Virus record (IMG/VR): IMGVR_UViG_3300043788_000060
Coordinates: 46,257 to 110,256 of that record
Direction: 5' to 3' (one strand)
Length of the DNA stretch: 64,000 bases
Source: a virus
Shown here: positions 490 to 27,943 of the stretch, one piece after another
Layout: every line of letters starts with the position of its first letter
Position numbering within the stretch: position 1 is the first letter of the stretch
Translations under genes and position numbers: made by a program
Notes under the pieces: generated by a model
Databases searched by the model: none
What the model was told of the DNA's origin: nothing
The model's input: only the letters and a program-made list of their open reading frames with translations

Positions 490-516
490 GTGAATAGACA
501 AGACGGAGGAAAATTC

Positions 517-2296: not shown

Positions 2297-2350
2297 AAAC
2301 TCTTCATCCAGAGTGCGCCTGAGCAGGGAAGTGTAAGTGATCCAGCACGT
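2297..2350 (+). CDS. Major capsid protein, exon 3 (18 codons, KLFIQSAPEQGSVSDPAR)
   Basis: Lies in frame between the terminal G of intron 2 and the P1 splice site of intron 3. Confidence 0.85.
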
Positions 2351-2572
2351 CAACTTTAGGCGTCACTAAGGCGAAATCCTTAGAAGAAAATTCTATCTAA
2401 TTGACTTGGAAGCTGAGAAGCCAACAAGGCGGAACCCAGAAATCGGGACCGTGAGAGACTAAACGATAGAACACCCTTTGGGGTGATGCGATAGTCCGGC
2501 CTCATACGAAATGAAGTATGAGAGGTGTGCAGAAATGACGCACCCCGTCCATTTTAGACGAGTAACATTCCG
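2351..2572 (+). ncRNA. Group I intron 3 (222 nt, no ORF)
   Basis: P1 ACGU/GCGU with U2350-G2360; P3 UUCUAUC/GAUAGAA; P7 GAGACUA/UAGUCC; P9.0 GG/CC; terminal G2572. Confidence 0.92.
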
Positions 2573-2677
2573 CAAATTGGAGGCTGGGTTTCTTACAATG
2601 TACGGTACACAAACACTTTGCGTCCGGGCAGCACAATGACGCTAAGACGTTTGCAATCAGAGACATCCAGTTCATAG
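2573..2677 (+). CDS. Major capsid protein, exon 4
   Basis: QIGGWVSYNVRYTNTLRPGSTMTLRRLQSETSSS-stop; the DP..Q.G.W pattern matches the C-terminus of this capsid family. Confidence 0.85.
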   Translation, partial: QIGGWVSYNVRYTNTLRPGSTMTLRRLQSETSSS

Positions 2678-2726
2678 GAGTCTTTGAAAAAATAGTTTCG
2701 AAATTCTTTACACAAAGCCATTAAAC

Positions 2727-2737
2727 TGTGGTATAAT
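2727..2737 (+). promoter_or_regulatory. Extended -10 promoter upstream of the GIY-YIG gene
   Basis: TGTGGTATAAT in intergenic DNA, with TTTACA upstream. Confidence 0.6.
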
Positions 2738-2817
2738 GTATTTGAGTTTCGAAATTCAAACCGGGAAGGGCGGTACCTCACTACCGCCCAACTCGACTCA
2801 TGTGAGGATGAGAGAAC

Positions 2818-3597
2818 ATGTATTACATCTATTTGGTAACGAATAAAGTCAACGGAAAGATTTATGTTGGTCAGACTGGGTTGACCATAGAGGAACGTTT
2901 TAAAAGTCACATCTGGTCTCGGAACAAGGACGATCATTTTCATGCGGCAATCCGAAAGTATGGAGAAGACGCTTTCGTCATCCAAGAGTTGGGCAAGTTC
3001 GAATCTCTCGAAGAAGCCAACAACGCAGAATCTTTGTGGATAATCTCCCTTCGATCCTACGACAGCAAAATTGGCTACAACACGAAATTTGGTGGCGAAA
3101 ACGGAGGAGCCCCCACCGAAGAAACAAGAATCAAAATCGGATTAGCAAGCAGCCAAAGAGTTCATGCTGCTGAGACTCGGGAAAAGATGCGAAATTCTCA
3201 TCTCAAACGCCAAGGAAAAACTACTTCCCACGAGGGAGTGGGGGTTTTTAAAGGACGTTTTCGGGCGAGAATCAAGATTCACGGAAAAGAAATTTCTTTG
3301 GGACAACACGATACCATTGAAGAGGCGGTTGAGTTTCGAAAAAAGAGTTTAGAACGGCTGAGCCAAATCGGACTAGAAGCTTTCACGGGAGAACTAGAAA
3401 TCTTCCGTAAAGAAGTAAACAAGAAAAGAATCGCAAACCGGCCTCACAGAGGACCTTTATCTGACGAAGAAAAGGAACAGATTAGTATTCGCACCAAGAA
3501 ACGATGGGCGAAGAACTTTAATTGGATGGACGCTCAATTCGTTTCTCCCTTTGTAACGGACGCCCAAACCCAGCAGAACGATCAGGTTGCATCATGA
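2818..3597 (+). CDS. Free-standing GIY-YIG homing endonuclease (NUMOD3-like and AP2-like DNA-binding parts)
   Basis: YIYLVTNKVNGKIYVGQT...GYN; EETRIKI and ETREKMR repeats; FRARIKIHGKEISLGQHDTIEEA. Confidence 0.88.
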   Translation: MYYIYLVTNKVNGKIYVGQTGLTIEERFKSHIWSRNKDDHFHAAIRKYGEDAFVIQELGKFESLEEANNAESLWIISLRSYDSKIGYNTKFGGENGGAPTEETRIKIGLASSQRVHAAETREKMRNSHLKRQGKTTSHEGVGVFKGRFRARIKIHGKEISLGQHDTIEEAVEFRKKSLERLSQIGLEAFTGELEIFRKEVNKKRIANRPHRGPLSDEEKEQISIRTKKRWAKNFNWMDAQFVSPFVTDAQTQQNDQVAS

Positions 3598-3863
3598 GCT
3601 ACGAAACTTGGTTTCACGGCACGAACGAGGATTCGGCTCGTCTAATTATTCAAACCGGATTTCAACCCGGAACATATTTTGCAAAACACATGGAAGACGC
3701 AATCATATTTGGCGGTCCCTGCGTTTTCTGGATTAGAGTAGAATGGGAGCGAAAGAGTTTGGACGGATGGCAGCAGATAAGTTCTAACCATATTCCATCC
3801 AAGGCAATTGTAGGATTTTTCCTTGGAGAAGGTTGGTTCGAAGAAGCCAAGGAGGCCGCATGA
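3594..3863 (+). CDS. Small ADP-ribosyltransferase-fold-like protein
   Basis: WFHGT...IIQTGF...YFA pattern of ART-fold proteins; ATGA overlap with the upstream stop. Confidence 0.5.
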   Translation: MSYETWFHGTNEDSARLIIQTGFQPGTYFAKHMEDAIIFGGPCVFWIRVEWERKSLDGWQQISSNHIPSKAIVGFFLGEGWFEEAKEAA

Positions 3864-4108
3864 TCGCCTGTTGCGGGAGCCGGGCTATTGCGGATTATTG
3901 CAAACGGTGCGGTCGGAATTTAACGGCTCTTGGGCAATACCGAGATTATGTTCACTATGTCCCCGGAACTCAGACCCCATGTTTGACCATCGAAGAAGCC
4001 CTCGGAATGACCGAAGAGGAATTTGACGAGATAATAAATCCTCTTCAAGAAGAACTCGCAAGAAAGCTATCCGAAACCATTGACCTTTTAGTAAAGGATT
4101 TCACCTAA
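3860..4108 (+). CDS. Hypothetical protein with Cys motifs
   Basis: SD AGGAGG, ATGA coupling, CC..CxxC. Confidence 0.6.
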   Translation: MIACCGSRAIADYCKRCGRNLTALGQYRDYVHYVPGTQTPCLTIEEALGMTEEEFDEIINPLQEELARKLSETIDLLVKDFT

Positions 4109-4215
4109 TGCCCGTCTCCCCAGCATCCTCCAGTACCGGCCTGACAACTACCACAGCGGTTTTCTACGGCGCGAAAAAGAAACCCAAGCCGAGGAAGAAG
4201 CCAAAGAAGAAATGA
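4108..4215 (+). CDS. 35-aa peptide with a Lys-rich tail (MPVSPASSSTGLTTTTAVFYGAKKKPKPRKKPKKK)
   Basis: TAATG coupling at the start and ATGA coupling at the end; below the ORF-track cutoff. Confidence 0.55.
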   Translation: MPVSPASSSTGLTTTTAVFYGAKKKPKPRKKPKKK

Positions 4216-4334
4216 CGGCGCTTTGGATAGTCGGGATAAGTTTAGGATGCCTTCTTGTAGCCACAATTGCAGCGGCGGTCGTCATCGGCATTGCTAAACA
4301 AGCTATCAACTATTTCATTGGTCGCTCTCGATGA
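4212..4334 (+). CDS. 40-aa single-TM membrane peptide
   Basis: Coupled start and a long hydrophobic stretch. Confidence 0.5.
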   Translation: MTALWIVGISLGCLLVATIAAAVVIGIAKQAINYFIGRSR

Positions 4335-4447
4335 CGACGATCTAGTAGCCGACGGAACCCTGTCCGAAGAAGAACTGAAAGAAGCGGTCGAGAAATTCAG
4401 GCGGCTGCGGTCGGCGCACTCCGAAGTTTGGGAAGAAGAGGAGTCCG

Positions 4448-4714
4448 ATGTTTAAAAAGGTCCGCCTGAGCCTGCCTGCCTATTATTGCGTTCTTGGACA
4501 GTTCCCGCATTGTGACCAAAGAATTCTTCACGCCCGGGGCGAGTGCCAATATTGTGATAAGCACCCAGACTGGCAAGCTCTTCGGGAGGCGTGGGGAATA
4601 TCCTTTACTGGATACGAACCGGAAGACAAAGAATTGCCCTGTCCGGCGGATTATGCACGAGGAGATTCTCATAAGCTCTGGTATGGAAACGTAGCAGCGA
4701 AGGAGTCCGAATAA
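4448..4714 (+). CDS. Hypothetical Cys/His-rich protein
   Basis: SD GAGGAG; HC..H..CxxC. Confidence 0.65.
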   Translation: MFKKVRLSLPAYYCVLGQFPHCDQRILHARGECQYCDKHPDWQALREAWGISFTGYEPEDKELPCPADYARGDSHKLWYGNVAAKESE

Positions 4715-12864: not shown

Positions 12865-13581
12865 ATGGCTTCCTCCACGATCCAACTTCAGCGGACGATC
12901 AACCGCTCCTCGCAATACGCCCGCTTGGAGCCACTGACGTTTGTCTCAAATACCGCTAATGACCCGGCGTTTTCAAACGCCGATTGGGTGATGCAGACTA
13001 TTTTGGCTCCCCCGTTTGCGTGGAGATGGAACAGGACCTCGGAAGGAACTCCGTCGGCCCCTGCGTTTGTCACTGAAATCGGCGTAACGGACTATCAAGT
13101 TAATCTCCCAACTTTTGGTTGGCTCGAAAAGGCTACTTTGTACGATCCAACTTCTGGATACGCGGCTCTGGAATTGCAAGTAGAACTGATCAAGGCTATC
13201 GAAACCAACCCTATCCAACCCCAGCGTATCGCAACACAACTTGACGACGGACAAGGAAACATAACGTTCCGATTATTCGGGTCCCCGGATCAGGTCTATA
13301 ATGTTTGTCTGGAATTTCAAAACGCGGCCCAATTATTCACCGATCCAACAAATACGTGGGCTCCTATTCCGGACTACTTATCATACATCTACAACGAAGG
13401 CATGGATTATAAGACGTTTGAATATTTGTCGGACCCCCGTATGCAGACATCTGGACAGTTGTTCTTTCAATCCCTCGCTGCGGCTTCTGAAGGGCTGACG
13501 GAATCTCAGAAAAATCTTTGGCTAAGTGACAAAATGAATACGCTCCGTCAGACTGCATCCGTTCAATCGGGGAGGGCCTAA
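12865..13581 (+). CDS. Head-tail adaptor / tail tubular A-like protein, paralog 1
   Basis: IL.PPFAWRWNR...DY...GWLE...FRL..P...IPDY pattern shared with 26096..27187. Confidence 0.55.
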   Translation: MASSTIQLQRTINRSSQYARLEPLTFVSNTANDPAFSNADWVMQTILAPPFAWRWNRTSEGTPSAPAFVTEIGVTDYQVNLPTFGWLEKATLYDPTSGYAALELQVELIKAIETNPIQPQRIATQLDDGQGNITFRLFGSPDQVYNVCLEFQNAAQLFTDPTNTWAPIPDYLSYIYNEGMDYKTFEYLSDPRMQTSGQLFFQSLAAASEGLTESQKNLWLSDKMNTLRQTASVQSGRA

Positions 13582-13880
13582 TGGGAACAGCAACTACCGG
13601 GTTTCATCGCTTTAGTAACGTCACTGCTCGGGCTCCATACTCAACTACCCAAGAGGTGGTTCCCGGGGCTACTATTTATGTAACTTTGACGACGACCGGA
13701 GCCGGGGCTGTTATTTATTCGGACCCGGGACTGTCTGTAGTTATACCGGGGTCGTTGATTACTGCCGACCCCTCGGGGTGGTACGAATATTATATTCCCC
13801 TGAATTACAACGTGACAGAAACCATTACCTCGGTTTCCGGATTGAATTTTACGATCACGAACATCGTGTCTAACACATAG
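13581..13880 (+). CDS. 99-aa protein paralogous to the N-terminal domain of the giant fibre (no signal peptide)
   Basis: TTGFHR..VVP.A.I.VT.T.TG..A.IYSDP.LS..I....TAD..G.Y.YY.PLNY.VTETIT aligns directly with the fibre N-terminus. Confidence 0.8.
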   Translation: MGTATTGFHRFSNVTARAPYSTTQEVVPGATIYVTLTTTGAGAVIYSDPGLSVVIPGSLITADPSGWYEYYIPLNYNVTETITSVSGLNFTITNIVSNT

Positions 13881-13887
13881 GATTGGA

Positions 13888-16800
13888 ATGAAGAAATTTC
13901 TTCTCATCGTCGCTTTGTTCCTCGCAATCTGTCCATTATCCGGACTGAATGCTCAAGCCACGACCGGCTATCATCGGGTAAATCAGGTGCTGTCCCGAGC
14001 CTCTACCGGGATCAACGCTCAGGTGGTCCCCAACGCCAGAATCACGGTTACCCAAACGGCTACCGGAACTGCGGCAACTATCTATTCCGACCCCCTGTTG
14101 TCCAACCTTATAACTCCGTCTGTAGTCACTGCCGATAACGCAGGGAACTATTCATATTATGTCCCTCTGAACTATTGTGTAACAGAAACAATCACTGCCC
14201 CCGGTCAGGGGACTCAGATAATCCCTAACATCTGTTCAAACAGCGCCAGCAGCAGTACCTTTCCTTCCCCTCCGTCATTTTCTGTACAATTCGCAAACAG
14301 CGGGTCATCGGCTTTTGATAGTGATTCGACTATTAACGTCACTCCCTCTACTCATACCCTTACTTCTCCAACGGTACAACCGGGTCAGGATGTTACCCAG
14401 AGTTCTCCTGTTATAGACATTCGCAACACTGCCTTTGCGGGCGGTGCGGTGATCGACGGCCACACCGATATTAGCCCCGCAGTGTGCGCCGCCCGTGAAA
14501 GTTGGAGCGCCTCACATCCGGGTCAAAGTCAGACAATTTTATTGGCCTGCGGCGGCGGTGGTTCATCCGCTTCTTGCTGGTGGGCTAACCCTTTGGCGAG
14601 TTGTTCTGGAAGCATAGGCAGTGATTTTAAGTACGTCCTGCAAGGCACTCTCAATGTAGGTACCACGTTGTCCGTTGGTGCGGGTGGGGCTTCTATAGGC
14701 GCGTCAGAGTTCGATGGGGAATCGGGAGAGTTTGGAACTCAATTCCAAGGCACTTTGGCGACAGCAGTAGTCAACGGTCCTCTATGTTTTGGTACGCTCG
14801 GCACCGCAATCACAACGATCAACACCCCGGTCACGGTGACGCCGACATTTTCCGGAACGACTATCGGCGGTGCATGTTCGATTGCAAATCTTCCGGTAAA
14901 TTCCGCGCTGACTATGCGCGGCATGGAAACGTCAGCGGCTACGGGTACGCGGTCTTCAACTTCACTCAGCGGAAGCGGTGGGTACGCGGTACTGACCTTA
15001 TCTTCTGCCGTGCGTATTTCGGCGGGGTCGAACATTCAGGTAACTGGCTGCTCAGACACAGCGTTCAATACCGGTACTCTGGGAACGCTGTCACAAAGCG
15101 TAGTCGCCACTCCGGATTATCCCAATCAGCAACTCGGCTATTACATCTCGACATCTGGTACCGGGTCATCAACAGGATGCACGGTGAAGGGGGCCAGTGA
15201 CGACCGTTTTGAGACAGAGCTAGTGCAGTGCTCAAACGGCACGGCTAATCCCGGATACTCCTGCGGCGCGGGACAGATCACTTTCGTAAACGCCCATACA
15301 TACGCATCGACTGACCAGTGGGGCGAAGTGGCGATGGAAAGCCCGTTCAACGACGGGGCCGGTGGAACTGGGTTGGTAATGAAGCGGATTCTAGTCCAAG
15401 GTTCCGCAGGAGCAGAATTCTTCTCCGATGAGTCCATCCATGAGACGTTCGAGGATGATGGGTTTATTGCCTTTGGGACGCCCACTTCGATTCCTTTCGA
15501 GGCAGATTACCCGCAGAACCTCACAGTCCATTCATCGGCTTTTAATTCGGTCAACAATGGGTATAGCACTTGCCAATCCGGTAACTGTGGGAACGTGAGT
15601 TACCCGTTCGGATTTCGCTGTACCATGATCCCGCCCAGTATCAGTTCTTATCAGGCGGGAACGTGTAACAACTCGAAAATTGATACTTACTCTCAGGTTC
15701 GCGGTGGAATCAAAGTCGATACCAACGGATTCTCTCTGAACTTCGGTATTGAGGCAGCAGCCCCGGAACTTGACCGTGTTTTAATCGAGGAGCCTGTATG
15801 GGGTGGAATTACTTTCGATACCCGAGATGGAGTCACAGGCCCGGTTTACATCAAGGATAGCTACTTACAGGATTTCGTTTCTGGGAGCACCGATCAGGCT
15901 TTTATTGCTGCGGAAAATCCGGGGGGCACTGGATATATTTTTGAGAACAATACCTACTCAGAAAATCCTTTTCTCGTCAATAAATATTGGTATAGTCCAG
16001 CAATCAGTGTGCGCGGAAACATCTCTGATCAGCTTTATACTCCGTGGCCTTATCAAGGGATAGGGGCTGTAGGGCTATTTGAGGACAATGGATTTCTCAA
16101 GGGTGAAGTTGAAGCTCCCGCATTTACTGGTTTCGAGAGTTTGCCCTTCGGTTCGCTCGCTGTAAATCAGTCGCCTGCATCTTGGACTTCGGCTTGCAGC
16201 ACGAACTGTACGGTAACAACGGTTCAAGACCCCACAGGCGGTCAGAACGGCGCTAATATCGCCTCAAACTCAACCACTCATCAAACGATCCTGATTAGCA
16301 TACAATCCGTATCCACCTACCCCGGCGATCAGTTTATCTTTATGGATTGGTTGCGTCCCGGTACCGGACAACTCATACCTAATGACTGGCGAGGTAACTA
16401 TCCATTCCAACTCCAAACTTTGGGCACGGATACCTTTCAGAACAACGGATGCGAAAGCGGCATTGGGTCAAATACAGCCTGCGCTACTAATTACGGACTT
16501 CCTATGTTGAACGACGACTGGGCACCTTACGTGGCTACCGCCACTATCGGGACAGGCGAGTCAGCAGCGCACTTCATGGAGTTTAATCTCGAAAGCGGCC
16601 AATGCACGAATGGTTCGATCCTCAACTGCGGAACACAGCATTTCTGCCCGCAGTGGGCTTTTGTACCGGGGCCTAATAACCCCTCCTACACAGGTGTTTC
16701 TACGTTCGACGTGCAAATCGCCCGCATGTACAACTATCACGGTTGTGCGCCGGGCGGGTTACTTGCCGGACAGGTGGCGACTAATCAAACTGTTGTAGCC

Positions 16801-19800
16801 GCCCAGATTATCGATTCAGGAACCCCATCCAGCACAGCCCCGCTATGTCCAAACGGTCCTAACGGTCAATTCACTACTTCTGGTTGCGTAGCTGGTGCGG
16901 TAACCTCCGTCTCCAACTCCGATGGAACTTTAACTATCTTCCCAACAACGAGTGCGGTAGTAGCCTCTCTAAACACAAGCCACGCGAATTCATGGACCGG
17001 GTTACAGACGTTTGGAACAGATATCTCTATAGGCGGTGTAACAGCTACAGGGGCCACAGGAACTGGTAACGTCGTATTCTCGGCTGCTCCGACCTTTACC
17101 GGAACAATCACGGGGGTAAATCTTACGTTGACCGGTATTGAGTCGGGCAGCGGAAGTTCTTGCTTGCAGATCAGCACTGCCGGAGTCATCAGCAATACAG
17201 GAGCCCCCTGCGGATCGGGAAGCGGCGCGGTTAATTCTATCACCGGAGACGGCGGTATAATCACCAACAGCCTATCTACCGGTGCCGTTACTCTGACTTT
17301 AGGAGCTACAGAAGCAGGCCAGTTTATAGTGGCTTCTGGGTCGGGAACCGCCGTATGGGGAAAGCAAGTCACGCTTGGTCACCAAAATGATAGCGGCGCT
17401 TTAGCTAACGGCTCTCTTACGATTGCCGGTAGCACAACTGCGTCTGGAAATTTAACTCTTAACGGAACAGGGTCTTCTCCCGGACAGATGTCGTTATTCC
17501 TTAATTCTGCCGGAACTATTATGGATTTGGGAAGCACCAACGCCACGGTATCGGCAGCCGGGGCCTATGTTGGAACGAATGTAACTGATTCAGCACTAAA
17601 CGTGGCTGGATTGGTAACTAACTCGTCTGCTGGACTTCTAGGAACAGAAGCTAATTGTACTATCGCACAAGGATGTACGAACGCAACTAGTGCGACGGCG
17701 GGTACAGTTCCTAACGCTACTAGCGGGACTGCGTCTAGCTGGACCCCAACTCCTGCGTTGGGAACAGACAACAGTGTGTCCGGAACTCTACAACTTTCGA
17801 ATAACACCGCAAACGCCCACTCAATTCTCGGAAGCGCGGCTACGACAAGCAACACGGTCAAGTTATTTGCTACCACTCCTACAAATCTGGATTTGATCTA
17901 TTGTGCCAGTTCTGGAGGAGTATGCACGCTAACCGACGCCGGTTATGCCTACAACTCAATTCCATTAGCTGATATTGCTTCACAATCAGCCAATATCATA
18001 GTTGGAACCACAACCAGCGGTAGTCCCGTAGCTCTGTCCGCTCCTTCTTGTTCAGGGGCAACTAACGCTCTAATTTGGACAACTGGAACGGGTTTTGGTT
18101 GCAACACAATCACCACAAGCAGTGTTGCTTTCTCTGGGCTCACCTCCTCGACCAATACCACAGCAGCTATGGTCGTTGGAACCGGAGCAAGTCTGTCTAC
18201 CTCCGGATCGGGAACTATCGTAGCCACAAGCAGTCCATTTTCCGGACTAACTACCTCTACAAATACTACGGCTACCATGACTGTCGGAACTGGGGCAACT
18301 ATTACCTATTCCGGGTCGGCGGTGATAAACTCCACCGCAGTAGAATCGGCTGGAGCTATTACAACTAACGCAACTTATTATTTCCCGATTATATCTTCAA
18401 GTTCGTCCGGAAACTACGAGTTGAATGCTGTAGCTGGTCTAACAATTAACCCGTCAACCGGGTCTATGGATGTTCCTTCGGGCATCGCAACTGGCGGACT
18501 ATCCAACACAATCTCCGGGGGAACAGCAGGATTCTATGGTCCAATAGAAGGAACCGCTCCCACTGCTATAACGGGCTCTGGCAATTTTGATATCATCTAT
18601 GCGGATTCGACTCTGCACGCCGACATGGAGTGCCCGGAGTCTAATTCAACCGCCGTGACTACATGCCTGCCCGTTGCCTTGATGCCAGCTACGAGCACGG
18701 CTGGGGATGTGGTGTATAGCACTAACTCAAACGGGTATAACCTATCGGATGCTGGATACCCATACAACGCAATCCCCAACGCCGATCTTGCTCATTCTGC
18801 AATAACCATCGCAGGCACCTCAGTATCTTTGGGTGGATCAACTACTTCGCTCCCGAGTCCCGGCGTAATCGGCGGAACAACCCCGGCGGCGGCTACCTTC
18901 ACGGCTCTGACCGCCAACACGAGTCTCGTAATCAACGGCGGAACGGCTCAAACTGGAACACAAGGCACTGATACAAAGCTACTGACAGCCGGAACTATAA
19001 GCGGTACCAGTATACTTCTTTGCACGGATGCAAACGGCGGAGCAACCACCACAAGCTGCCCGAGCGGTGGTTCTGGGGTTGTGTCAGCCGCTGCACAATA
19101 CGATATCGCATACTACACTCAGTCGGGGACTACAGCACAAGTCGGCGGAGCGGCAATTAGTGGTTTCCAATTCGATTCAACTTCCGGAGCACCAGCCGCG
19201 GCTACCGCAGCGCAACTTGGAACTCTGGCTGCTATTGCAACTGGAGATTTGGTCTACAGCGGAGGAACGTCATCGGCGCTCCAAGGAAGCGCAGACTTCA
19301 CGATTTCATCGCATACTCTGACTGGAGGATCAAACGCTATCTTCGATATGAGTGCTGGCGTGAACGTGAAACTGCCGGTCACCGCTTCTTACACTAGCGC
19401 AGCCAATGGCGAACAGGGTTACGACTCAACAAATAAGAATTGGCATATATGGGGAAACGCTGTTGATAATTTCAATGTGATCGTACCGGTATCAACATCG
19501 ATCACGAACGGCCACTGTTCTCAATGGTCTCTATCAGGCGGTGTGCTGACGCTCATCGATGCTGGTTCAACGTGTGGCTCGGACTCCGGTGGAGGAATAT
19601 CGGGGTGGTCTGGAACACCGTTAACCTTTATTTCAAGCACTACACAATATGCTCCCCCAGTGGGCGGAGGCTTGACCGCCACTTCCGAATCGACGGCAGA
19701 CGTAGCTGCGCCTGCTGCCGAAACTATCTCCAGCCTTGCTGTAAGTCTTAGTGCGGCCTTGGGCGCTGGTGCAACACTCCAAGTCACCTTCCGAGATAAC

Positions 19801-20775
19801 GGCGCGTCAACGGCGCTTACTTGCACTACAGCATCGGGTGGAACGTCCTGTACCGACACGACGCACAGCGTGAACATCGCTAAGGGCGATTTGATCGATC
19901 TATTGTTGGTCTCTTCCGGCACGGTAACCGCTGGTGTTCCTCAAATTATCGCAAACTATGCAGTCGGCACGAGTGGTGTCGGTGTGACTAGTATTGCCAC
20001 TACAGGCCCCATCACTGGCGGGACAATCACTTCGACGGGTACCATCGCCTGCGCGACGTGCGTTACCAGCGCCGCGTCACTGACGGCCAACGGCATCGTA
20101 ATTGGCGCAGGGAGTCAAGGGGCACAAACCTTGGCTTTAGTGGCGAACGCGGTCCTCAGCACAAACAGTATCGGCGTGCCATCGGAAAGCACAACGTTGC
20201 CTATCGCGCTGACGATTCCCGACGCTGCATCGATTCAGGCGCAGACGGTTCTTCCGCTCACGCAAGTTGGCATCTACAATACAGCGGCTCTGCCGGTAAC
20301 GACTACCAATCCGGCATTGACTTCTTACACTGTCTCAAAGAATCGTCGCGCCTGCGTGATCGATAACGATACGCAGTCAGCGACCGCACTGACAGCGGCG
20401 CAGTTCTCAGGGAAATGCGTCATTCCGTTTGCGGCGACCATCGTCGAAGTAGACGTTTCGGGCGGAACGCAGACCTTGAACGGAACCGCGACGGCTCCGA
20501 CTTACACAGGTACAAGTTCGATCCAGATCGGCAAATCTGGAGCGCAAAACGTAACCGGAATTCTTTCGGGAGTTCTTGCTACGGCTTCGGGCAGGGCCTG
20601 TGCGGTTGCGGGAACTTCGGGAACCTGCATTTTCGATAACGGTATGACCAGCAGCACGACAGTACAACTGTCTGATACCTCGGTCGCAGCCGGAGATCAA
20701 CTTTACATTTCTGCCGCAACGGCGGACGCAACACAGACGTGGTACGACGTAACCATTGTCTACACGGTAAATTAA
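13888..20775 (+). CDS. Giant (2295 aa) tail fibre/spike-like protein with an N-terminal signal peptide
   Basis: MKKFLLIVALFLAICPLSGLNA-Q; fibre-type repeats (AVTSVSNSDGTLTI, GAVNSITG, GVTSIATTGPITGGTITSTGTI); probable beta-helix region; many Cys pairs. Confidence 0.75.
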   Translation: MKKFLLIVALFLAICPLSGLNAQATTGYHRVNQVLSRASTGINAQVVPNARITVTQTATGTAATIYSDPLLSNLITPSVVTADNAGNYSYYVPLNYCVTETITAPGQGTQIIPNICSNSASSSTFPSPPSFSVQFANSGSSAFDSDSTINVTPSTHTLTSPTVQPGQDVTQSSPVIDIRNTAFAGGAVIDGHTDISPAVCAARESWSASHPGQSQTILLACGGGGSSASCWWANPLASCSGSIGSDFKYVLQGTLNVGTTLSVGAGGASIGASEFDGESGEFGTQFQGTLATAVVNGPLCFGTLGTAITTINTPVTVTPTFSGTTIGGACSIANLPVNSALTMRGMETSAATGTRSSTSLSGSGGYAVLTLSSAVRISAGSNIQVTGCSDTAFNTGTLGTLSQSVVATPDYPNQQLGYYISTSGTGSSTGCTVKGASDDRFETELVQCSNGTANPGYSCGAGQITFVNAHTYASTDQWGEVAMESPFNDGAGGTGLVMKRILVQGSAGAEFFSDESIHETFEDDGFIAFGTPTSIPFEADYPQNLTVHSSAFNSVNNGYSTCQSGNCGNVSYPFGFRCTMIPPSISSYQAGTCNNSKIDTYSQVRGGIKVDTNGFSLNFGIEAAAPELDRVLIEEPVWGGITFDTRDGVTGPVYIKDSYLQDFVSGSTDQAFIAAENPGGTGYIFENNTYSENPFLVNKYWYSPAISVRGNISDQLYTPWPYQGIGAVGLFEDNGFLKGEVEAPAFTGFESLPFGSLAVNQSPASWTSACSTNCTVTTVQDPTGGQNGANIASNSTTHQTILISIQSVSTYPGDQFIFMDWLRPGTGQLIPNDWRGNYPFQLQTLGTDTFQNNGCESGIGSNTACATNYGLPMLNDDWAPYVATATIGTGESAAHFMEFNLESGQCTNGSILNCGTQHFCPQWAFVPGPNNPSYTGVSTFDVQIARMYNYHGCAPGGLLAGQVATNQTVVAAQIIDSGTPSSTAPLCPNGPNGQFTTSGCVAGAVTSVSNSDGTLTIFPTTSAVVASLNTSHANSWTGLQTFGTDISIGGVTATGATGTGNVVFSAAPTFTGTITGVNLTLTGIESGSGSSCLQISTAGVISNTGAPCGSGSGAVNSITGDGGIITNSLSTGAVTLTLGATEAGQFIVASGSGTAVWGKQVTLGHQNDSGALANGSLTIAGSTTASGNLTLNGTGSSPGQMSLFLNSAGTIMDLGSTNATVSAAGAYVGTNVTDSALNVAGLVTNSSAGLLGTEANCTIAQGCTNATSATAGTVPNATSGTASSWTPTPALGTDNSVSGTLQLSNNTANAHSILGSAATTSNTVKLFATTPTNLDLIYCASSGGVCTLTDAGYAYNSIPLADIASQSANIIVGTTTSGSPVALSAPSCSGATNALIWTTGTGFGCNTITTSSVAFSGLTSSTNTTAAMVVGTGASLSTSGSGTIVATSSPFSGLTTSTNTTATMTVGTGATITYSGSAVINSTAVESAGAITTNATYYFPIISSSSSGNYELNAVAGLTINPSTGSMDVPSGIATGGLSNTISGGTAGFYGPIEGTAPTAITGSGNFDIIYADSTLHADMECPESNSTAVTTCLPVALMPATSTAGDVVYSTNSNGYNLSDAGYPYNAIPNADLAHSAITIAGTSVSLGGSTTSLPSPGVIGGTTPAAATFTALTANTSLVINGGTAQTGTQGTDTKLLTAGTISGTSILLCTDANGGATTTSCPSGGSGVVSAAAQYDIAYYTQSGTTAQVGGAAISGFQFDSTSGAPAAATAAQLGTLAAIATGDLVYSGGTSSALQGSADFTISSHTLTGGSNAIFDMSAGVNVKLPVTASYTSAANGEQGYDSTNKNWHIWGNAVDNFNVIVPVSTSITNGHCSQWSLSGGVLTLIDAGSTCGSDSGGGISGWSGTPLTFISSTTQYAPPVGGGLTATSESTADVAAPAAETISSLAVSLSAALGAGATLQVTFRDNGASTALTCTTASGGTSCTDTTHSVNIAKGDLIDLLLVSSGTVTAGVPQIIANYAVGTSGVGVTSIATTGPITGGTITSTGTIACATCVTSAASLTANGIVIGAGSQGAQTLALVANAVLSTNSIGVPSESTTLPIALTIPDAASIQAQTVLPLTQVGIYNTAALPVTTTNPALTSYTVSKNRRACVIDNDTQSATALTAAQFSGKCVIPFAATIVEVDVSGGTQTLNGTATAPTYTGTSSIQIGKSGAQNVTGILSGVLATASGRACAVAGTSGTCIFDNGMTSSTTVQLSDTSVAAGDQLYISAATADATQTWYDVTIVYTVN

Positions 20776-20788
20776 CCAAGGAGAATCT

Positions 20789-21580
20789 ATGAAGAAGTTT
20801 ATTTTTGTGATCGCGATGCTGGTAATTGCCGCCGTGATTGGGGGTGCCCAGAACCAAGCTCCTGTTACAGGTCCAATTGCTCCTAACGGGTTTGCCATAC
20901 CAAACGTCAATTTGATAGACGATTTTCTCGGCAATACTCCAGCGACTTCGACGACAATCGGGCAATTGGGGTGGGATTCTACCGTTGTTTCTGGTGGAAC
21001 CAACCCAGTTGCTGCTACGGCTTCTGTAGCCAATCATCCGGGGCTGATTACCCTCACTACTGCTGCAACAACTGGTGACGGTGTATATGTGTCGTTGGGT
21101 CACGCGGTGGGAGTTCTATTTCCCGGTAACACAACCAACTGGCAAGCGGAATGGATTCAGGAGTACAACCAGATATCCACAGGTTCAACTAGAATCGGTT
21201 TTGGTACTGTCGATTCGTCTTCTGCTATTCCGACAAACGGCATCTATATCCGATATCTTCAAGGCACGGACTCTTTCTTGAATGTCTGCTCGGATACTTC
21301 TTCAACAGAGACCTGCGGGGCGACGACCATTCTTCCAACCGCAGCGGACTACGTTGACATCATTATGAGTTCGTCTGCTACCGGGACGATCAGCGTCACG
21401 GTAAACGACATCACGACTCCGGCGACTTCTACGATAAGGGTATGCTCAAGCGGCTGCAACGTTACAGCGACTCCTCCAACAGGAGTCCTATCACCTATGT
21501 TCTCAATCGTTTCAACCAGCAACACGGCGGATGTCCTGACTGTGGATTATTGGAACTATCAACAAATCGCCGCCAGATAA
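20789..21580 (+). CDS. Exported beta-sandwich/lectin-like protein
   Basis: SD AAGGAG; MKKFIFVIAMLVIAAVIGGA-Q; two Cys pairs. Confidence 0.7.
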   Translation: MKKFIFVIAMLVIAAVIGGAQNQAPVTGPIAPNGFAIPNVNLIDDFLGNTPATSTTIGQLGWDSTVVSGGTNPVAATASVANHPGLITLTTAATTGDGVYVSLGHAVGVLFPGNTTNWQAEWIQEYNQISTGSTRIGFGTVDSSSAIPTNGIYIRYLQGTDSFLNVCSDTSSTETCGATTILPTAADYVDIIMSSSATGTISVTVNDITTPATSTIRVCSSGCNVTATPPTGVLSPMFSIVSTSNTADVLTVDYWNYQQIAAR

Positions 21581-21584
21581 TATA

Positions 21585-23117
21585 ATGAAACGACTTATCC
21601 TATTTTTGTTCTTTCTGTTCTCGGTACCTACGTGGGCGGTTACCCCAGTTGTTCTTCAGTATTTCGGCGGTCCGAATGAGTCAAACGAGTTTGCGCTTAC
21701 GACCAGTTTGACAAAGAATGTTCCGTTGGCTAGAGCCGCGACTGCTGGGGATACGCTCGTCTGGTGCATGTACTACAACACCGGAAGCGGCTGGGCTGTC
21801 AAGACAGATGCAGGCGCTGAGACTTTTACCGAAGGCGTTCATGGAACCGATTCGGGTGTCGGAACATTGGACTGCTACTACTTCATCAACTTGGCAGGCG
21901 GTGAAACTAGTATCCAGATCACGCACACGTCAGGGAGTCCTACCTATGTGGGCGGAGTGGGATACGAAGTGAACAACATCACCGCTCATCACGTCGCCGG
22001 AACCTGTACGTCGGGGTCAGGGGCACTAGGACAGGCAGCTTCTACGACAGTTACTTCCGGCACTACAGGGACAGTCGCATCGGGAGATTGGCTTTCTGTC
22101 TACACCTTTCAATTCTCGACGCCGCAATTGACGGTTGCCTACGCTCCTGTGACCCACGCGAACATCACTTGGCAGATGATTCATTCGGAACTGATGGTCG
22201 CGCAAGCCATGATGGTAGGTCAATATAGCACTACCACAGCCTTCCAGCCTTCAATGACTCAAGCCAACGTGCAGACCTCGAATATGTGTACGGATGCTTT
22301 CACGACGGGCACCAGTGGAGCGGCGGGATTCCCGACAGGCGAAGTTGTGGCTGGAGTGCAGGCCGAGACGTTCTTGAACGGTGGCACGAATCCGATGGAT
22401 ATAGAAATAACGCCTATCGGAAACACGCTCGTGGTAATGGGACCAACGGGGTTTGGTGGATATTTCACGTCGGTCACGAGCAGTCCAAGTGCAACGTGGA
22501 AGTGGAATGACGGGTCGGGCAGCGACCCGGCTAGGTGTTTCGATTCAGGCGATGTTACCGAGACGCCTTACTTCTACGCTACGGGTCTGACTCCGGGCAC
22601 GACCTACACCATCACGGTAACTTCTAATACGGCGGCAGTCGATACAGCCTTCGCTGAGTTCGATATTGCTAAAGGGTCAACCCCGAACATCGGTAGCGCC
22701 GGTTCATGTAATACCGGTGTTTTTTCTGCGACCAGTGGAAATCTGAATATCAGCCTTACCACAGGAGGCGGTGCGGCGACCAATGCGGCCTTTGTACCAA
22801 CGAGCGCCAATGGGATCGTTATTTCCAGCGACAGCGTATCGTTCGATACAAACTCTGGCACTACAACCTCCGGCGCATTTGTCAATATGGGCTACAACAG
22901 CGGAGCGACCCAGATTGGAAACAGCCCGTGGTACGAGAATGACGGAGATTTAAGCTATCCGCATAGTTCAACGTCGAGTGTGGCCTTCATCTACACAATC
23001 ACCAGTTCTCCCCCCAACACATCAAGTGATGTAAGTGATTGGTCCGCTTCTACCATCGATGTTCCCGCAGCGTCATCACCGAGCACTTCCATACACCATA
23101 AGGTTACATCGGAATGA
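21585..23117 (+). CDS. Exported Thr/Ser/Gly-rich protein, probably two beta domains
   Basis: MKRLILFLFFLFSVPTWA-V. Confidence 0.7.
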   Translation: MKRLILFLFFLFSVPTWAVTPVVLQYFGGPNESNEFALTTSLTKNVPLARAATAGDTLVWCMYYNTGSGWAVKTDAGAETFTEGVHGTDSGVGTLDCYYFINLAGGETSIQITHTSGSPTYVGGVGYEVNNITAHHVAGTCTSGSGALGQAASTTVTSGTTGTVASGDWLSVYTFQFSTPQLTVAYAPVTHANITWQMIHSELMVAQAMMVGQYSTTTAFQPSMTQANVQTSNMCTDAFTTGTSGAAGFPTGEVVAGVQAETFLNGGTNPMDIEITPIGNTLVVMGPTGFGGYFTSVTSSPSATWKWNDGSGSDPARCFDSGDVTETPYFYATGLTPGTTYTITVTSNTAAVDTAFAEFDIAKGSTPNIGSAGSCNTGVFSATSGNLNISLTTGGGAATNAAFVPTSANGIVISSDSVSFDTNSGTTTSGAFVNMGYNSGATQIGNSPWYENDGDLSYPHSSTSSVAFIYTITSSPPNTSSDVSDWSASTIDVPAASSPSTSIHHKVTSE

Positions 23118-25537
23118 AGAAACTCTTTCTTCTTGCATTTGCTATCGTGCTGACGGCACCGTTATGCGCCCAATCGTGGTCGAACGTACTATCTTCTTCG
23201 CGGGCCATAAACTGGACCAACGCCGGATTACCTGCCACGTTGCCTGATGGGGAAACGACTCCCAATCCGTGGACCCCTCCGACTCGTCCCGCATGTACCA
23301 CGGGGCAGGCCGGAACAACCGTTCCCATTCCCTCGGGTGCTTCGGTTACGACGATCAACTCGGCCATTGCTTCCTGTGCAGCAGCCAACCCAAACGGATC
23401 ATACCTGCTGCTTGGTGGGTCTACAGCCAGTCCTGCGACGTTCACTGTCGCGTCCACGCAGTTAAGACTCGTTGATACCTCGGGCGGCATTTCGCACAAC
23501 GCTGTCACCCTGCGAGGTGGCGGAGCAATGGCAACGAAGATTGTAGTGACAGGTACAGGTGTAGTTGTCTTTGGAAATGCTTGGAGTTCTGGATCGGCTC
23601 CGTGGACCGCCGGGTTTAGTCAAGGCACAACATCAATCACCGTTGGAACTCCTACATCAGGAACTATTCCTGTGGCAGGCAATTTGGTTCTATTACAGAT
23701 GTGCAACACCGGGTTTTCTGGAGCGGGCTGCTCTACCGGATCAGTTGCAGATAACGGCAATGTGTTTCTGTGTGGTGGATCAACTTTCTGCGCAAATCAG
23801 GCAGGCAACGATACTCTTCAGGGTCAGATGGTAAGAGTCACCAGCGTAACCGGCTCAGGCCCATACACAGTTAATTTCACACCCGGTCTTTACATGCAAA
23901 ATTGGACTTCTACCGGAGGGGGTTCGACGATGAGTTGGACCGGGGCTGGGTCGATTAACTCTCCTTATGGTATAGGTCTGGAAGATTTGACGGTTGATGA
24001 GACGGGAATATGGAACACAGAAAACTTTGGCATTCAATTTGATTATGTCTACGCATCGTGGATGAAAGGCGTCCGCGTAGTGGGGTCAGGAGAAGCGGAT
24101 TCGGTCGAGTTCGAGGATTGCAAAAATAGTCTGATATTCAACTCTATGTTTGATGACTATTCCTACAATCGTGGAGATTTATCTCTTTCTATTCAGGAAA
24201 CCAACGATTCCGATAATCTAATCCTAAATACTCAGATGCTCCACGGACTGTCTTGGGAAGGTCATGGACCCAACGAGGGGGATATTCTGGCGTACAACTT
24301 CATTGGCCAGACTCATACCCTTTATTATGAAGCAAATCCGTTTCAGCACACCCCGGGCACGGCGTTTACTCTTTATGAAGGAAATGAAACCGGCCATATC
24401 ACAGACGATGACACTTGGGGAACCGCAAACCTGAATACGTTTTTCCGGAACTATATGTCGGGATGGGACCCGCCGTATCTTCTCTCAAGCCAGTGCGCTT
24501 CTTTATCATGTGTGGCAATGAAAGTGGATGGGGGGCACCGATTCGCTAATGTCATTGGTAATGCTATTGGAAGCCCGTTCCTGACGAACTATCAGGCTAC
24601 ATTGTCAACCCCAACTAACGGGATCACCAATAACGCTGTCTATCGATGGTCAGCAGACATGAACGACCCCCTCGTTTTGCTCACAGTCATGAGATGGGGA
24701 AATGTTTCTTCAGTAACGCAATCGTCAGACACTCCTGCTAATTCAGGTATCCGGTTTGTATCGTCAGAAGTTCCCTCTTCGATCAACGTCAATGGGCAGT
24801 GTTCTGCTAGCGCCAGTCCATATTCCTGTTGCACAGGATCGGGAACAGGAACATGCTCTGCTTCGACGTGGGCGAATTCAGTACCTTCCAATGACAATCT
24901 GCCGTGTTCGTTTTTCCTTGCCGGATATACTGGAACCAGTTGTACTCCTACCCACACAGGTGGTACTGGGCTAAGCTGGTGGAAAGTATGCAAAACATGG
25001 GCGACTTTTCCCACTTCCTGCTCCGCCACCCAAACCCAAGCCTTTCCGATTGCCGGTCCAGACATCACGAGCGGTCCATACGTTGGGGGAACGGCTTATG
25101 ATGTTCCGGCCTACGTTGCGTTTACCACTCTGCCGGTTGATACGACCTACGAGAATTCCTACTCGATCACCGGCTCCAGCTGGTCGGGGACTTGCGCAAA
25201 CCAACCATCGGGAACCTATGCTTGTGAAACCCTGACTGTCACCGGATTACCTTCCGGCAGCGCCCACATTATGGGCGATATCCAGATATCAGGGACTTCC
25301 GGATGCAACACGTCTACGAACGGTGTATTTACCATGACAGCGTCAAGTCTTAGCGGCACTACAGGAACCATAGTGTATCCTTTGGCTTCTAACCCCGGTT
25401 CATGTTCTGGCGGAACCATGCTATTTCCGGTGGTACGTCAGTTCGATGAAGCAGTCTATCAAAACGATCCTGCGGGAAACCCAATCGGATCAGTCCTATC
25501 CCCCTCAAACATATTTGGAAAATCAGTAATTCAATAA
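23114..25537 (+). CDS. Exported pectate-lyase-like beta-helix protein (possible depolymerase/adhesin)
   Basis: MKKLFLLAFAIVLTAPLCA-Q; TINSAIASC..VTLRGGG..T.I; IGLEDLTVD; Asn-ladder repeats; Cys-rich. Confidence 0.7.
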   Translation: MKKLFLLAFAIVLTAPLCAQSWSNVLSSSRAINWTNAGLPATLPDGETTPNPWTPPTRPACTTGQAGTTVPIPSGASVTTINSAIASCAAANPNGSYLLLGGSTASPATFTVASTQLRLVDTSGGISHNAVTLRGGGAMATKIVVTGTGVVVFGNAWSSGSAPWTAGFSQGTTSITVGTPTSGTIPVAGNLVLLQMCNTGFSGAGCSTGSVADNGNVFLCGGSTFCANQAGNDTLQGQMVRVTSVTGSGPYTVNFTPGLYMQNWTSTGGGSTMSWTGAGSINSPYGIGLEDLTVDETGIWNTENFGIQFDYVYASWMKGVRVVGSGEADSVEFEDCKNSLIFNSMFDDYSYNRGDLSLSIQETNDSDNLILNTQMLHGLSWEGHGPNEGDILAYNFIGQTHTLYYEANPFQHTPGTAFTLYEGNETGHITDDDTWGTANLNTFFRNYMSGWDPPYLLSSQCASLSCVAMKVDGGHRFANVIGNAIGSPFLTNYQATLSTPTNGITNNAVYRWSADMNDPLVLLTVMRWGNVSSVTQSSDTPANSGIRFVSSEVPSSINVNGQCSASASPYSCCTGSGTGTCSASTWANSVPSNDNLPCSFFLAGYTGTSCTPTHTGGTGLSWWKVCKTWATFPTSCSATQTQAFPIAGPDITSGPYVGGTAYDVPAYVAFTTLPVDTTYENSYSITGSSWSGTCANQPSGTYACETLTVTGLPSGSAHIMGDIQISGTSGCNTSTNGVFTMTASSLSGTTGTIVYPLASNPGSCSGGTMLFPVVRQFDEAVYQNDPAGNPIGSVLSPSNIFGKSVIQ

Positions 25538-25545
25538 GGAAAACA

Positions 25546-26061
25546 ATGAAAAAGTTTGTTCTTTCGCTTATCTTTTCGGCATCGGCGTTATTAGCTGGAG
25601 TCGGTTGCGCACACGCAGGTCAGCTTCCTCCAACGCCCGGATACAACACCGTGTGGACATGGACGGCCCCTAGCCCGTGTAGCGGGTGTACCTATGTTGT
25701 GTCCACGCTCGTTCTGTCCAGTGGGACGACTTGCCCCGCGTCAACAGGATCGAATTACATCCCTCAACAAACTGTGACCACAGGAGTAACTGGGACGACT
25801 TGGACCCAGACAAACACAACTGGGTTGACGTTGTGTGCTGTTGCCCAGACAATTCAGGGGGGAAATACTTCCACTGCTTCAGCACAAAGCGCAGCGGTAA
25901 TTAACCCGACCCTGCCATCAGCCCCCGGAGTACCAAGCGGAAATTCGGCGGTATCTGCGTTGGCTCCCCCTGTCTCCCCAAACTCCCTGCCAGTGCCTAG
26001 CTCCCAGATGGCAATGAATATTCCTATGCAGATTGTAGGACATTCGGTTCCGAGACAATAA
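25546..26061 (+). CDS. Exported FN3-like small protein (possible lipoprotein)
   Basis: MKKFVLSLIFSASALLAGVGCAHA; WTWTAP..Y.V..C.V....S..S..PSAP. Confidence 0.65.
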   Translation: MKKFVLSLIFSASALLAGVGCAHAGQLPPTPGYNTVWTWTAPSPCSGCTYVVSTLVLSSGTTCPASTGSNYIPQQTVTTGVTGTTWTQTNTTGLTLCAVAQTIQGGNTSTASAQSAAVINPTLPSAPGVPSGNSAVSALAPPVSPNSLPVPSSQMAMNIPMQIVGHSVPRQ

Positions 26062-26095: not shown

Positions 26096-27187
26096 ATGCC
26101 TGTATTACCCGGGAACCAAGCTAATTCGCCGACAGTTCAGCAGATAGCTCAACAACTAAAAGCGGACCCCTCTTTCTATAACATATTAGGAGGGGCTGCT
26201 GGTTGGGCTACCGAACCAATCCTGACTATCGCCAACGAAGTTCTGTCGCGAATTCTCGCCGAGAACATGCCTTGGATTTGGAATCGGGCAATCGTTCCTC
26301 CGTTCTTAACTGTCAGCCTTCAGCAGGATTATTGCACTCAGCTTACGGATATTGGGTGGTTGGAAGATGGCTGGCGTATAGACATCAACAACTCGACATC
26401 GAATAACAACGGGGCCCCGAAACCTATCTTTAGCCTCGAAACGGTCAGGTACACCCCGCAGGCGTCCGCCCAATCCGTACCATTCAACATTAGCTTCGTC
26501 CCTAACTCACAGGCGTTTCTAGGATCGTGGCAGGCTAATACTGCTTATGGTTGTGGGTATGGAGTTCCTATGACTCCTCGAACCCCCATCCAGCAGTTCA
26601 TGGATGTAAATGGCAACATCCTATACATCGACTCGACCCAACTAGGATTGACCATTTCTTCTCCGGGGTACACTGGAACTACCATCCTTCCCCCCGGAAC
26701 AGTGTTTCCTTACGGCACATCTGGGGCTACTCAACCCGCCGCTCCTCCTAACGCTACTCCCGGAACTTTAGTTCAGGATGGTTCGGTCATTTGGGCAGTC
26801 GCTGATCCAAATGGTTATGCGATACGGCTATTTCCTCTTCCGGCGTTGAACGGTCTCTGTTGGTGGATCGTAACTCAGTATCAGGTAGCTCCCCCGGTTA
26901 TCGCAAGATTGCAAGATTCGATTGCTCCTATTCCTAACTACATGGCGTACCTCTTCCGTCAAGGGTGCCGGGCGATGCTCTATCAGTTTCAAGGAAACCA
27001 GCAAGGTACTCAAATGTATCAGGAGTGGGAAGAGCAACTTTTTAAGGCTTTGAGAGCGGGGGACCGCCAGCAATCAGACGAGCGTCTATACCCTGATCAT
27101 TCAATTATGGGAAGCTACAACCCGTGGATGGACCCTGCTGGCATTGGCGCAGCTTGGCCTTATGGCCCCGGCCCGTATGCCTATTGA
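26096..27187 (+). CDS. Head-tail adaptor / tail tubular A-like protein, paralog 2, with an inserted Trp-rich module
   Basis: MPWIWNR..QQDY..GWLE..IRLFP.P..PIP; insert WQANTAY..GTSG..QDGSVIW. Confidence 0.55.
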   Translation: MPVLPGNQANSPTVQQIAQQLKADPSFYNILGGAAGWATEPILTIANEVLSRILAENMPWIWNRAIVPPFLTVSLQQDYCTQLTDIGWLEDGWRIDINNSTSNNNGAPKPIFSLETVRYTPQASAQSVPFNISFVPNSQAFLGSWQANTAYGCGYGVPMTPRTPIQQFMDVNGNILYIDSTQLGLTISSPGYTGTTILPPGTVFPYGTSGATQPAAPPNATPGTLVQDGSVIWAVADPNGYAIRLFPLPALNGLCWWIVTQYQVAPPVIARLQDSIAPIPNYMAYLFRQGCRAMLYQFQGNQQGTQMYQEWEEQLFKALRAGDRQQSDERLYPDHSIMGSYNPWMDPAGIGAAWPYGPGPYAY

Positions 27188-27909
27188 TATTGGTCTGTGA
27201 TTGATGGTCTCATTTTGATTCCGGCCTTTTTGAGCCTGTGCCGCACCCCAGCTTCCGTTAAAGGAAATAGTTTGGAAATTTGTGGGCAACTTTTTCCTTC
27301 CAAATAAAGCTTAATCAGGTCTTCCGTTTTTACTTCTTGGTTGAAGGAAGTACTCTTATCTCCAGAAAATCTTTCCCTAAGTTTCTGTCGAGTTTCTTCG
27401 GATAAAGAAGGACGATTCTTTTGGGCTTCCCCGATCTTTTTCCTTGTTATTTCTGATACGGGCGGTCGAGGATTGATGAGCAAAGATTTTTTAATGGCTT
27501 CGCTCATCTTCTTTCGAGATTCTAAGCTGTGTTTGAATCCTTTTGGAAGACCGCCGCTTTCCCTCACTTCTTCCGATGGTTTTCCATTAGCTCCCCCTCT
27601 TTTTAGGTTATAACCTTTGGATTTATTCATCGAATCATAAGCCGCTATGTAGAGGTCTTCCATCAAGTCTAATTCCTCTTTTGATTGGCAAGAACAAAGA
27701 AGTTCGATTTTGAATGATTCTTTTCCATACCGACGAATTGCCCGGAAAAGAGGCGTATCCTGCCCCTTGTATTTTCCCGACAGATATGCCACGGCGTGGG
27801 ATACGTGATTGCGAAACCGCAGTTTTAGGGACGACACTGTCTGGCCAACATAAATCTTTTTGTTGACTAAGCATGTAATCAAGTAAATTCTACCGTAAAC
27901 CAAAATCAT
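27181..27909 (-). CDS. Free-standing GIY-YIG homing endonuclease, antisense to the structural operon
   Basis: RIYLITCLVNKKIYVGQT..GYN; NUMOD3-like HSLESRKKMS repeats; C-terminal HTH. The track start at 27927 lies inside the promoter. Confidence 0.88.
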   Translation of the reverse strand: MILVYGRIYLITCLVNKKIYVGQTVSSLKLRFRNHVSHAVAYLSGKYKGQDTPLFRAIRRYGKESFKIELLCSCQSKEELDLMEDLYIAAYDSMNKSKGYNLKRGGANGKPSEEVRESGGLPKGFKHSLESRKKMSEAIKKSLLINPRPPVSEITRKKIGEAQKNRPSLSEETRQKLRERFSGDKSTSFNQEVKTEDLIKLYLEGKSCPQISKLFPLTEAGVRHRLKKAGIKMRPSITDQYQ

Positions 27910-27915
27910 AGTTTT

Positions 27916-27943
27916 ATTATACCACACTTCCCCAGTTTGTCAA
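27916..27943 (-). promoter_or_regulatory. Consensus sigma70 promoter
   Basis: TTGACA-16 nt-TATAAT with extended -10; ATG 6 nt downstream. Confidence 0.8.

Follow-up and report, generated by a model that had tools for sequence, protein, structure and literature searches.

In model tailed phages, the tail fibres fold and attach in the reducing cytoplasm. Phages of the SP6/K1-5 type carry, beside their tailspike genes, the adaptor gp37, which is essentially the N-terminal tail-attachment module of a fibre alone. Filamentous phages have virion proteins with Sec leaders, g3p and g8p; g3p is disulfide-bonded and made outside the cytoplasm. Here we describe two adjacent genes of a tailed soil phage from IMG/VR virus record IMGVR_UViG_3300043788_000060, analysed over a stretch of 64,000 nucleotides (positions 46,257 to 110,256 of the record) that is called the window below and in whose numbering the coordinates are given. 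The first gene encodes a protein of 99 amino acids (aa), the twin, and the second a giant putative fibre of 2295 aa which opens, behind a predicted secretion signal, with the same domain. We propose, at a probability of roughly 0.5, that the phage has two classes of fibre built on one anchor: the twin would be a stub that is mounted in the cytoplasm and stays as a socket occupant, and the giant would be exported, oxidised and docked at lysis.

The twin gene lies at 13581-13880 on the plus strand and is a maximal open reading frame (ORF) of 99 aa with an ATG start; its assignment draws on the ORF and its translation, the similarity to the giant, the predicted fold and selection. Since no start codon lies between an upstream in-frame stop and 13581, neither a leader nor another N-terminal extension is possible, and the protein contains no Cys. 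The giant is encoded at 13888-20775 on the plus strand. In a BLASTP comparison with its first 200 residues, residues 4-98 of the twin align to residues 24-118 with 51/95 identities (54%), no gaps and an E-value of 8e-24, a likeness that, as an alignment score, is far above the chance level. By this homology, the twin and residues 23-120 of the giant are old paralogues of one beta-sandwich domain, and they are the only two copies of it in the complete virus record of 110,256 bp. The copy in the giant (13954-14247, plus strand), as defined by alignment to the twin and to the family described below, holds C97 (14176-14178) and C116 (14233-14235). These positions are occupied in the twin by N77 (13809-13811) and V96 (13866-13868), so that the twin reads NYNVTETIT...TNIV vs. 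NYCVTETIT...PNIC in the giant. The sequence-only reading from which this work started had presented the twin as a counterpart of the first mature domain of the giant, devoid of Cys and of a signal peptide, and had quoted the same motif strings; all of this proved correct.

The giant begins with MKKFLLIVALFLAICPLSGLNA|Q. Its residues 1-22 (13888-13953, plus strand) look like a signal peptide of the Sec/signal peptidase I type with predicted cleavage at LNA|Q, judging from the sequence and from the statistics of the family. This leader starts with MKK, has two Lys in its N-terminal (n) region, reaches a 9-residue hydrophobicity maximum of 3.48 and ends with L at -3 and, at the -1 position, a small residue.

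From a 43-row alignment, AlphaFold predicts an all-beta structure for the twin with high confidence, the predicted local distance difference test score (pLDDT) being 89.9. The top match of this model in the PDB is 7eeq_A, from the tail machine of cyanophage Pam1, with a Z-score of 9.5 and a root-mean-square deviation of 2.0 over 83 of the 99 residues. The head-binding domain of P22 gp9 (8eb7, 8tvr) matches at Z 7.4-7.5, Pan3 at Z 7.3 and Sf6 gp14N at Z 7.0. Foldseek ranks the Pan3 tail complex (9vyg, E 2e-3) and Pam1 first, with E-values of 2e-3 to 4e-3 and a probability of 1.0. At E<=1e-3 the model has 12 viral matches in BFVD, and the named ones among those listed are tail fibres, tailspikes, pectate-lyase/beta-helix proteins and an exopolysaccharide (EPS) depolymerase. 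At the profile level, the family profile A2 matches the N-terminus of the Pan3 'Tail spike protein' with E 0.002 over 46 residues only. The shared domain is not recognised by Pfam or PHROGs, and PF09008 (Head_binding) gives no match; an Atlas neighbour carrying Head_binding, with a score of 0.88, can be taken as a lead only. A CarboxypepD_reg or transthyretin-like identity was considered and rejected, there being no Pfam match of the PF13620 type at E<=0.1 and fold-level similarity at Z 7.5-7.6 only. In the model, N77 and V96 lie on either side of the last beta-hairpin, which is formed by strands 78-83 and 89-95. On the basis of the predicted structure, we read the shared beta-sandwich as the N-terminal particle-binding (anchor) module of podovirus-type receptor-binding proteins. 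The fold and profile matches to the N-terminal domains of tailspikes thereby support the earlier suggestion that it is an attachment domain.

An exhaustive profile search returned 165 cluster representatives at E<=1e-3, 113 of them at E<=1e-10, so the anchor family appears to comprise at least 165 sequence clusters. In nearly all of 150 listed representatives the anchor starts at residue 1-25, mostly at about 16-25, and their total length runs from about 95 to 1843 aa. Behind the anchor, family members have anything between no further residue and over 2000 residues, and the C-terminal parts are mutually unrelated. Judged by these sequences, this is the classical pattern of a conserved anchor and a variable tip.

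The statistics of leaders and cysteines were taken from the 133 representatives with a near-complete domain. A leader is present in 125 of these, and in all 125 the architecture of n-, hydrophobic (h) and cleavage (c) regions is canonical. Gln stands at +1, before a conserved xTTGxHR motif, in 120/125; among these 120, the -1 residue is G, A or S in 114, two K/R fall within the first eight residues in 97, and the mean leader length is 19. The idea that the leader Cys marks a lipoprotein was discarded, as T, V, L or I mostly stands before this Cys, which is moreover absent from many members. The two anchor columns read C/C in 113/125 leader-bearing representatives, and 11 have L, M, F or I plus G or a gap in place of the pair; with the twins included, the columns show C/C, [LMFI]/G or x/V. 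A single Cys at the two columns occurs in no representative, save for one alignment gap. The pair has been lost, both members together, in about five leader-bearing lineages (the 11 representatives), and since both cysteines are always lost together, the pair seems to act like a disulfide, though a dispensable one. In a distant branch, P0106-P0145 (e.g. L020:8001-10010), the 100-residue domain has a second conserved Cys pair (VC...TGC), which makes four Cys per anchor.

None of the 13 signal-less copies has C/C. They comprise seven representatives and the copies in the window and in the related contigs L001, L002, L004, L009 and L014, and five of the seven twin representatives contain no Cys at all. 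P0139, which begins MA|QG... and has four Cys, looks like a truncated gene call. In a maximum-likelihood tree, the 13 copies are monophyletic, with a Shimodaira-Hasegawa-like approximate likelihood ratio (SH-aLRT) support of 95; the leader changes state twice and C/C six times, leaving 2 independent contrasts. Because the signal-less copies all fall in one clade, the leader-Cys pattern amounts to a single ancestral event, and with 2 contrasts it is without statistical power. Better, though indirect, evidence for export comes from the parity of the cysteines: counted from the domain start to the C-terminus, 111 of the 125 leader-bearing representatives have an even number of them and 14 an odd one (binomial p 7e-20). 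Thus, the claim that the Cys pair tracks with the signal peptide holds as a pattern (113/125 vs. 0/13), whereas as a statistical correlation it does not, coming down to one clade and two contrasts. The conclusion drawn from it, that export is real, is very probable, although on the strength of the parity rather than of the tracking, which taken alone is one event. On these sequence patterns, one copy is cytoplasmic and the other very probably exported.

The mature giant has 48 Cys, arranged as closely spaced pairs over its full length; one more in the leader brings the total to 49. Long and short gaps between the mature cysteines alternate, which is typical of local disulfide loops. The protein has no match in Pfam or PHROG, and these databases gave nothing usable for the proteins next to the twin, the giant and the 238-aa protein described below. 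Four more leader-bearing, Cys-containing proteins (263, 510, 807 and 171 aa) complete what appears to be an exported cassette (20789-26061, plus strand), as seen from their N-termini, hydrophobicity and Cys counts; the genes start at 20789, 21585, 23114 and 25546, and each protein has a leader and 4-22 Cys. Gln is also the first predicted mature residue in the proteins at 20789 and 23114; the site of the giant lies at 13951-13956. Among the signal-less late-operon proteins, several contain no Cys, namely those of 2322, 524, 382 and 226 aa.

The history of the twin is that of a lineage of its own. Its identity to both P0010 and the L014 twin is 74%, vs. 54% to the neighbouring giant. Between twins, the proportion of synonymous differences (pS) is 0.69-0.88, i.e. 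saturated, and that of non-synonymous differences (pN) is 0.20-0.46, with values of 0.20-0.37 for the twin of the window. By this measure, the twin is under purifying selection and is a real functional gene. Most twins elsewhere have 168-341 aa, in which the anchor is combined with a knob of one of two types and in some cases, such as P0044, also with fibre-type repeats. Anchor-only twins are found in the window, P0008, L009 and P0089, in both the N/V and the M/G sub-lineages, which suggests that the knob was lost more than once; a search for the knob domain elsewhere in the genome of the window found none. The twin lineage is therefore best described, as far as these comparisons go, as a cytoplasmic short fibre that has been cut back to an anchor-only stub in this phage. 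The shaft repeats or distal knob of most twins suggest a permanent short fibre and not a transient plug.

The twin is preceded by a gene for a conserved 238-aa tail-module protein (12865-13581, plus strand), its presumed docking partner, homologues of which, 57-81% identical, immediately precede the twin gene in six related contigs. A Shine-Dalgarno (SD)-like motif GGGAGGG and a TAATG stop/start overlap (13570-13583, plus strand) couple the twin to this gene. A scan for promoters and terminators yielded sites in numbers not above those in shuffled sequence, which gives no hint of separate transcription units. The gene of a 363-aa paralogue of the 238-aa protein (26096-27187, plus strand; BLASTP E-values of 4e-6 and 3e-4 in two collinear segments) closes the cassette and may provide a second set of sockets. 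Homologues of the 363-aa protein also come after the fibres in L004 and L009, so that there, too, the two paralogues bracket the exported-fibre cassette. The order of the late operon is terminase (PHROG 38), portal-like gene, capsid region, 238-aa gene, twin, exported cassette and 2322-aa protein.

This synteny extends to relatives. The twin-giant gene pair recurs in five other IMG/VR phage contigs; in six contigs, including L001, L002, L004, L009 and L014, the twin lies within -1 to +9 nt of the homologue of the 238-aa gene, and in 5/6 it stands directly before a leader-bearing fibre. In the closest relative, L014, about 2.2 kb (2341-4593) separate the twin from the exported fibre; the window has neither this insert nor the knob of that twin. 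A 98%-complete relative encodes a twin and two exported copies. L005 and L007 have the whole upstream gene order in common with the window and carry two leader-bearing copies and no twin, and an 86%-complete genome of 93 kb has one leader-bearing copy and no twin. Exported fibres therefore do not generally need a twin. The slot of the twin in L005 (4311-4580), and likewise in L007, is taken by an ORF of about 90 aa for a hydrophobic, membrane-type protein, followed by the two leader-bearing anchor proteins; apart from this small ORF, a search of the L005 gap for a remnant twin found nothing.

Several other features of the region can be mentioned. Two endonuclease genes, one of the LAGLIDADG/HNH type and one for a GIY-YIG homing enzyme, are found within the capsid region (window 478-1461 and 2818-3597), and another GIY-YIG-like ORF (27181-27927, minus strand) separates two tail genes. 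The Cys-free protein of 2322 aa (34870-41838) matches DUF7178 and PHROGs 3170/3842, which are of unknown function; it may be a virion RNA polymerase or an ejection protein.

The host is probably a member of the Acidobacteriota. A first profile scan of bacterial genome contigs was without matches, and a scan of bacterial genomes with the four-Cys subfamily revealed two loci, one in Tunturiibacter gelidiferens and one in an Acidobacteriales metagenome-assembled genome (MAG). The family is also present in 3/301 genomes of the same bacterial family, and no other bacteria were found to carry it. One of the two chromosomal copies adjoins recombinase and primase genes. The copy in the MAG (L021:7950-10340) encodes a protein of 796 aa with a leader, an anchor and a GDSL-like esterase, located among genes for TetR, SDR, epimerase and GMC-oxidoreductase proteins; we take it for a domesticated tailspike or else the remnant of a prophage. 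SD-like motifs precede 32/72 ORFs, and these frequent motifs, together with the genome matches, point to an acidobacterial host. A host from the Bacteroidota was considered because of the Gln at +1; the SD usage and the acidobacterial matches speak against it.

The proposed mechanism starts from the large class of the family, whose members, with a Sec/signal peptidase I leader, Gln at +1, a coupled Cys pair in the anchor and an even number of Cys, would fold with disulfides outside the cytoplasm. The second class would be a single lineage that lost leader and cysteines together and became a cytoplasmic short fibre. In the phage of the window the stub, probably as a trimer, would be added to the tail along with the 238-aa protein while still in the cytoplasm, and would then stay in place, structurally filling one set of fibre sockets. 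The giant would be exported and oxidised before docking, and by the same kind of anchor it would dock on free or paralogous sockets only once lysis mixes periplasm and cytoplasm. The analysis shows the homology, the fold class, the leader and Cys patterns, the monophyly of the twins, selection and synteny; actual export, trimerisation, the socket used by each copy and the time of attachment are the points that we infer here.

Several points weigh against this scheme. An exported fibre that joins a particle built in the cytoplasm has no described precedent in the literature searched, nor did these searches yield an account of tail fibres with Sec leaders in tailed phages. The presumed docking partner, the 238-aa protein, has no assignment in PDB, Pfam or PHROG, and its model reaches a pLDDT of 49. 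Generic transthyretin-like folds match the twin model at Z 7.5-8.2 and CnaB is found among Z 7-8, close to the 7-9.5 of the anchor matches, so the margin over generic folds is modest. Cultured relatives are lacking: nothing meaningful came up when 50,697 phage records were searched by tblastn with the twin, the giant N-terminus and a chromosomal homologue, and the primase/helicase is less than 25% identical to those of cultured phages. Finally, the rare chromosomal copies in Acidobacteriota, one of them among metabolic genes, indicate that leader and anchor can occur as a module where no virion is obvious. The last point leads to the view that the leader-bearing proteins are not parts of the virion but secreted enzymes or adhesins acting on the host envelope or exopolysaccharide, with the twin alone on the particle. 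This would keep the two compartments separate, and it would agree with the GDSL-esterase homologue among the metabolic genes of the Acidobacteriales MAG and with a cassette content that differs between relatives. However, a receptor-binding part is missing from the twin of this phage, and the 110-kb genome showed no further signal-less ORF resembling a fibre. Furthermore, a conserved anchor with hypervariable C-termini is a hallmark of virion receptor-binding proteins, and the cassette is part of the structural operon, where two tail genes that are paralogues flank it. We regard this view as rather unlikely. It is far less probable still that the hydrophobic N-termini are membrane tethers or propeptides removed by a phage protease and that the fibre folds in the cytoplasm. 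Although SignalP-type false positives have been suggested for phage capsid proteins (PMC10367356), the canonical n/h/c structure of 125 representatives with a small residue at -1, the even Cys parity (with the p value given above) and the joint loss of leader and cysteines in the twin clade all argue for genuine export signals.

With both proteins placed on the particle, the question becomes what the twin does there. The sequence-only reading had cast it as a docking seed or placeholder. In this two-compartment assembly, the Cys-free stub would act as a socket-keeper: it would fill the fibre sockets in the cytoplasm, and at lysis the exported giant would displace it or stack onto it. The same socket is plausible for both, given the common anchor fold and the conserved N-terminal TTGxHR motif; the mature N-termini of the two copies begin no more than one residue apart, the stub lacks a distal part and so could not bind a receptor itself, and the SD motif of the twin is stronger than that of the giant. 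The relatives speak against it, since exported fibres occur without a twin in L005/L007, whose gene order is the same, and in further lineages, and most twins bear the knobs or shafts of permanent fibres. Exchange is also unlikely in view of the nearly irreversible binding of tailspike anchors such as that of P22 gp9. No computed support was obtained for the seed or placeholder role, the relatives without a twin argue against a requirement for it, and we consider such an exchange or joining unlikely. As to a twin without any function, left behind by fibre-gene replacement or tandem duplication, its place directly before a gene that opens with the same domain and the loss of the knob in this phage would fit. 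Yet it is nearer to the twins of other phages than to its neighbour (74% vs. 54%), belongs to a monophyletic clade intact in six contigs with saturated synonymous vs. low non-synonymous change, and has a strong ribosome-binding site; this explanation is close to refuted. The scheme of a permanent cytoplasmic stub and an exported giant on one kind of anchor is the one we prefer.

The family of at least 165 clusters pairs a secretion signal and paired cysteines with a classical virion anchor, and in one genome the genes for a cytoplasmic and an exported version of this anchor are neighbours. Together they form a natural control: the same domain is without Cys when leaderless and with Cys behind a leader. 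Should exported fibres indeed join at lysis, a new branch would have to be added to the textbook assembly pathways, and the stabilisation of very long fibres in soil phages would be easier to explain. The annotation and expression of receptor-binding proteins from uncultured phages would also be affected, as oxidising conditions may be needed. The twin offers a concrete handle on socket occupancy.

Compared with known systems, the Gln at +1 recalls the Q-rule of Bacteroidetes, where the substrates of signal peptidase I have Gln as the first mature residue (PMC5837995, PMC10653852); Q-rule leaders also occur on unknown proteins of Porphyromonas phages (PMC10367356). The likeness extends to 120/125 leader-bearing members of the family. 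However, the bacteria carrying the anchor family are Acidobacteriota, which are not mentioned in the Q-rule paper PMC5837995, and the phage uses Shine-Dalgarno motifs. Since the host points to Acidobacteriota, the Bacteroidetes rule does not explain the Gln of the family, and a Q-rule-like preference may exist outside Bacteroidota.

As with g3p and g8p of filamentous phages, a predicted Sec leader is found here on a putative virion protein, and g3p resembles it in its disulfides as well. Filamentous phages, however, assemble by extrusion at the membrane, whereas the phage described here is a tailed, DNA-packaging one with a terminase and a portal. Like gp37 of SP6/K1-5, the twin is a small protein consisting of the attachment module alone and encoded next to a fibre gene; those phages carry anchor-less tailspikes and all of their components are cytoplasmic, whereas the long fibre here keeps its anchor and is predicted to be exported. 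The closest counterparts are the podophage anchors of Pam1, Pan3, P22 gp9 (2vnl, 8tvr, 8eb7) and Sf6 gp14N (7sg7), with which the present family has in common a beta-sandwich of about 100 residues at the extreme N-terminus of receptor-binding proteins with variable C-terminal parts. Unlike in these anchors, the domain here stands mostly behind a Sec signal peptide, holds one or two Cys pairs of the disulfide type, and is accompanied by a stand-alone signal-less copy encoded alongside.

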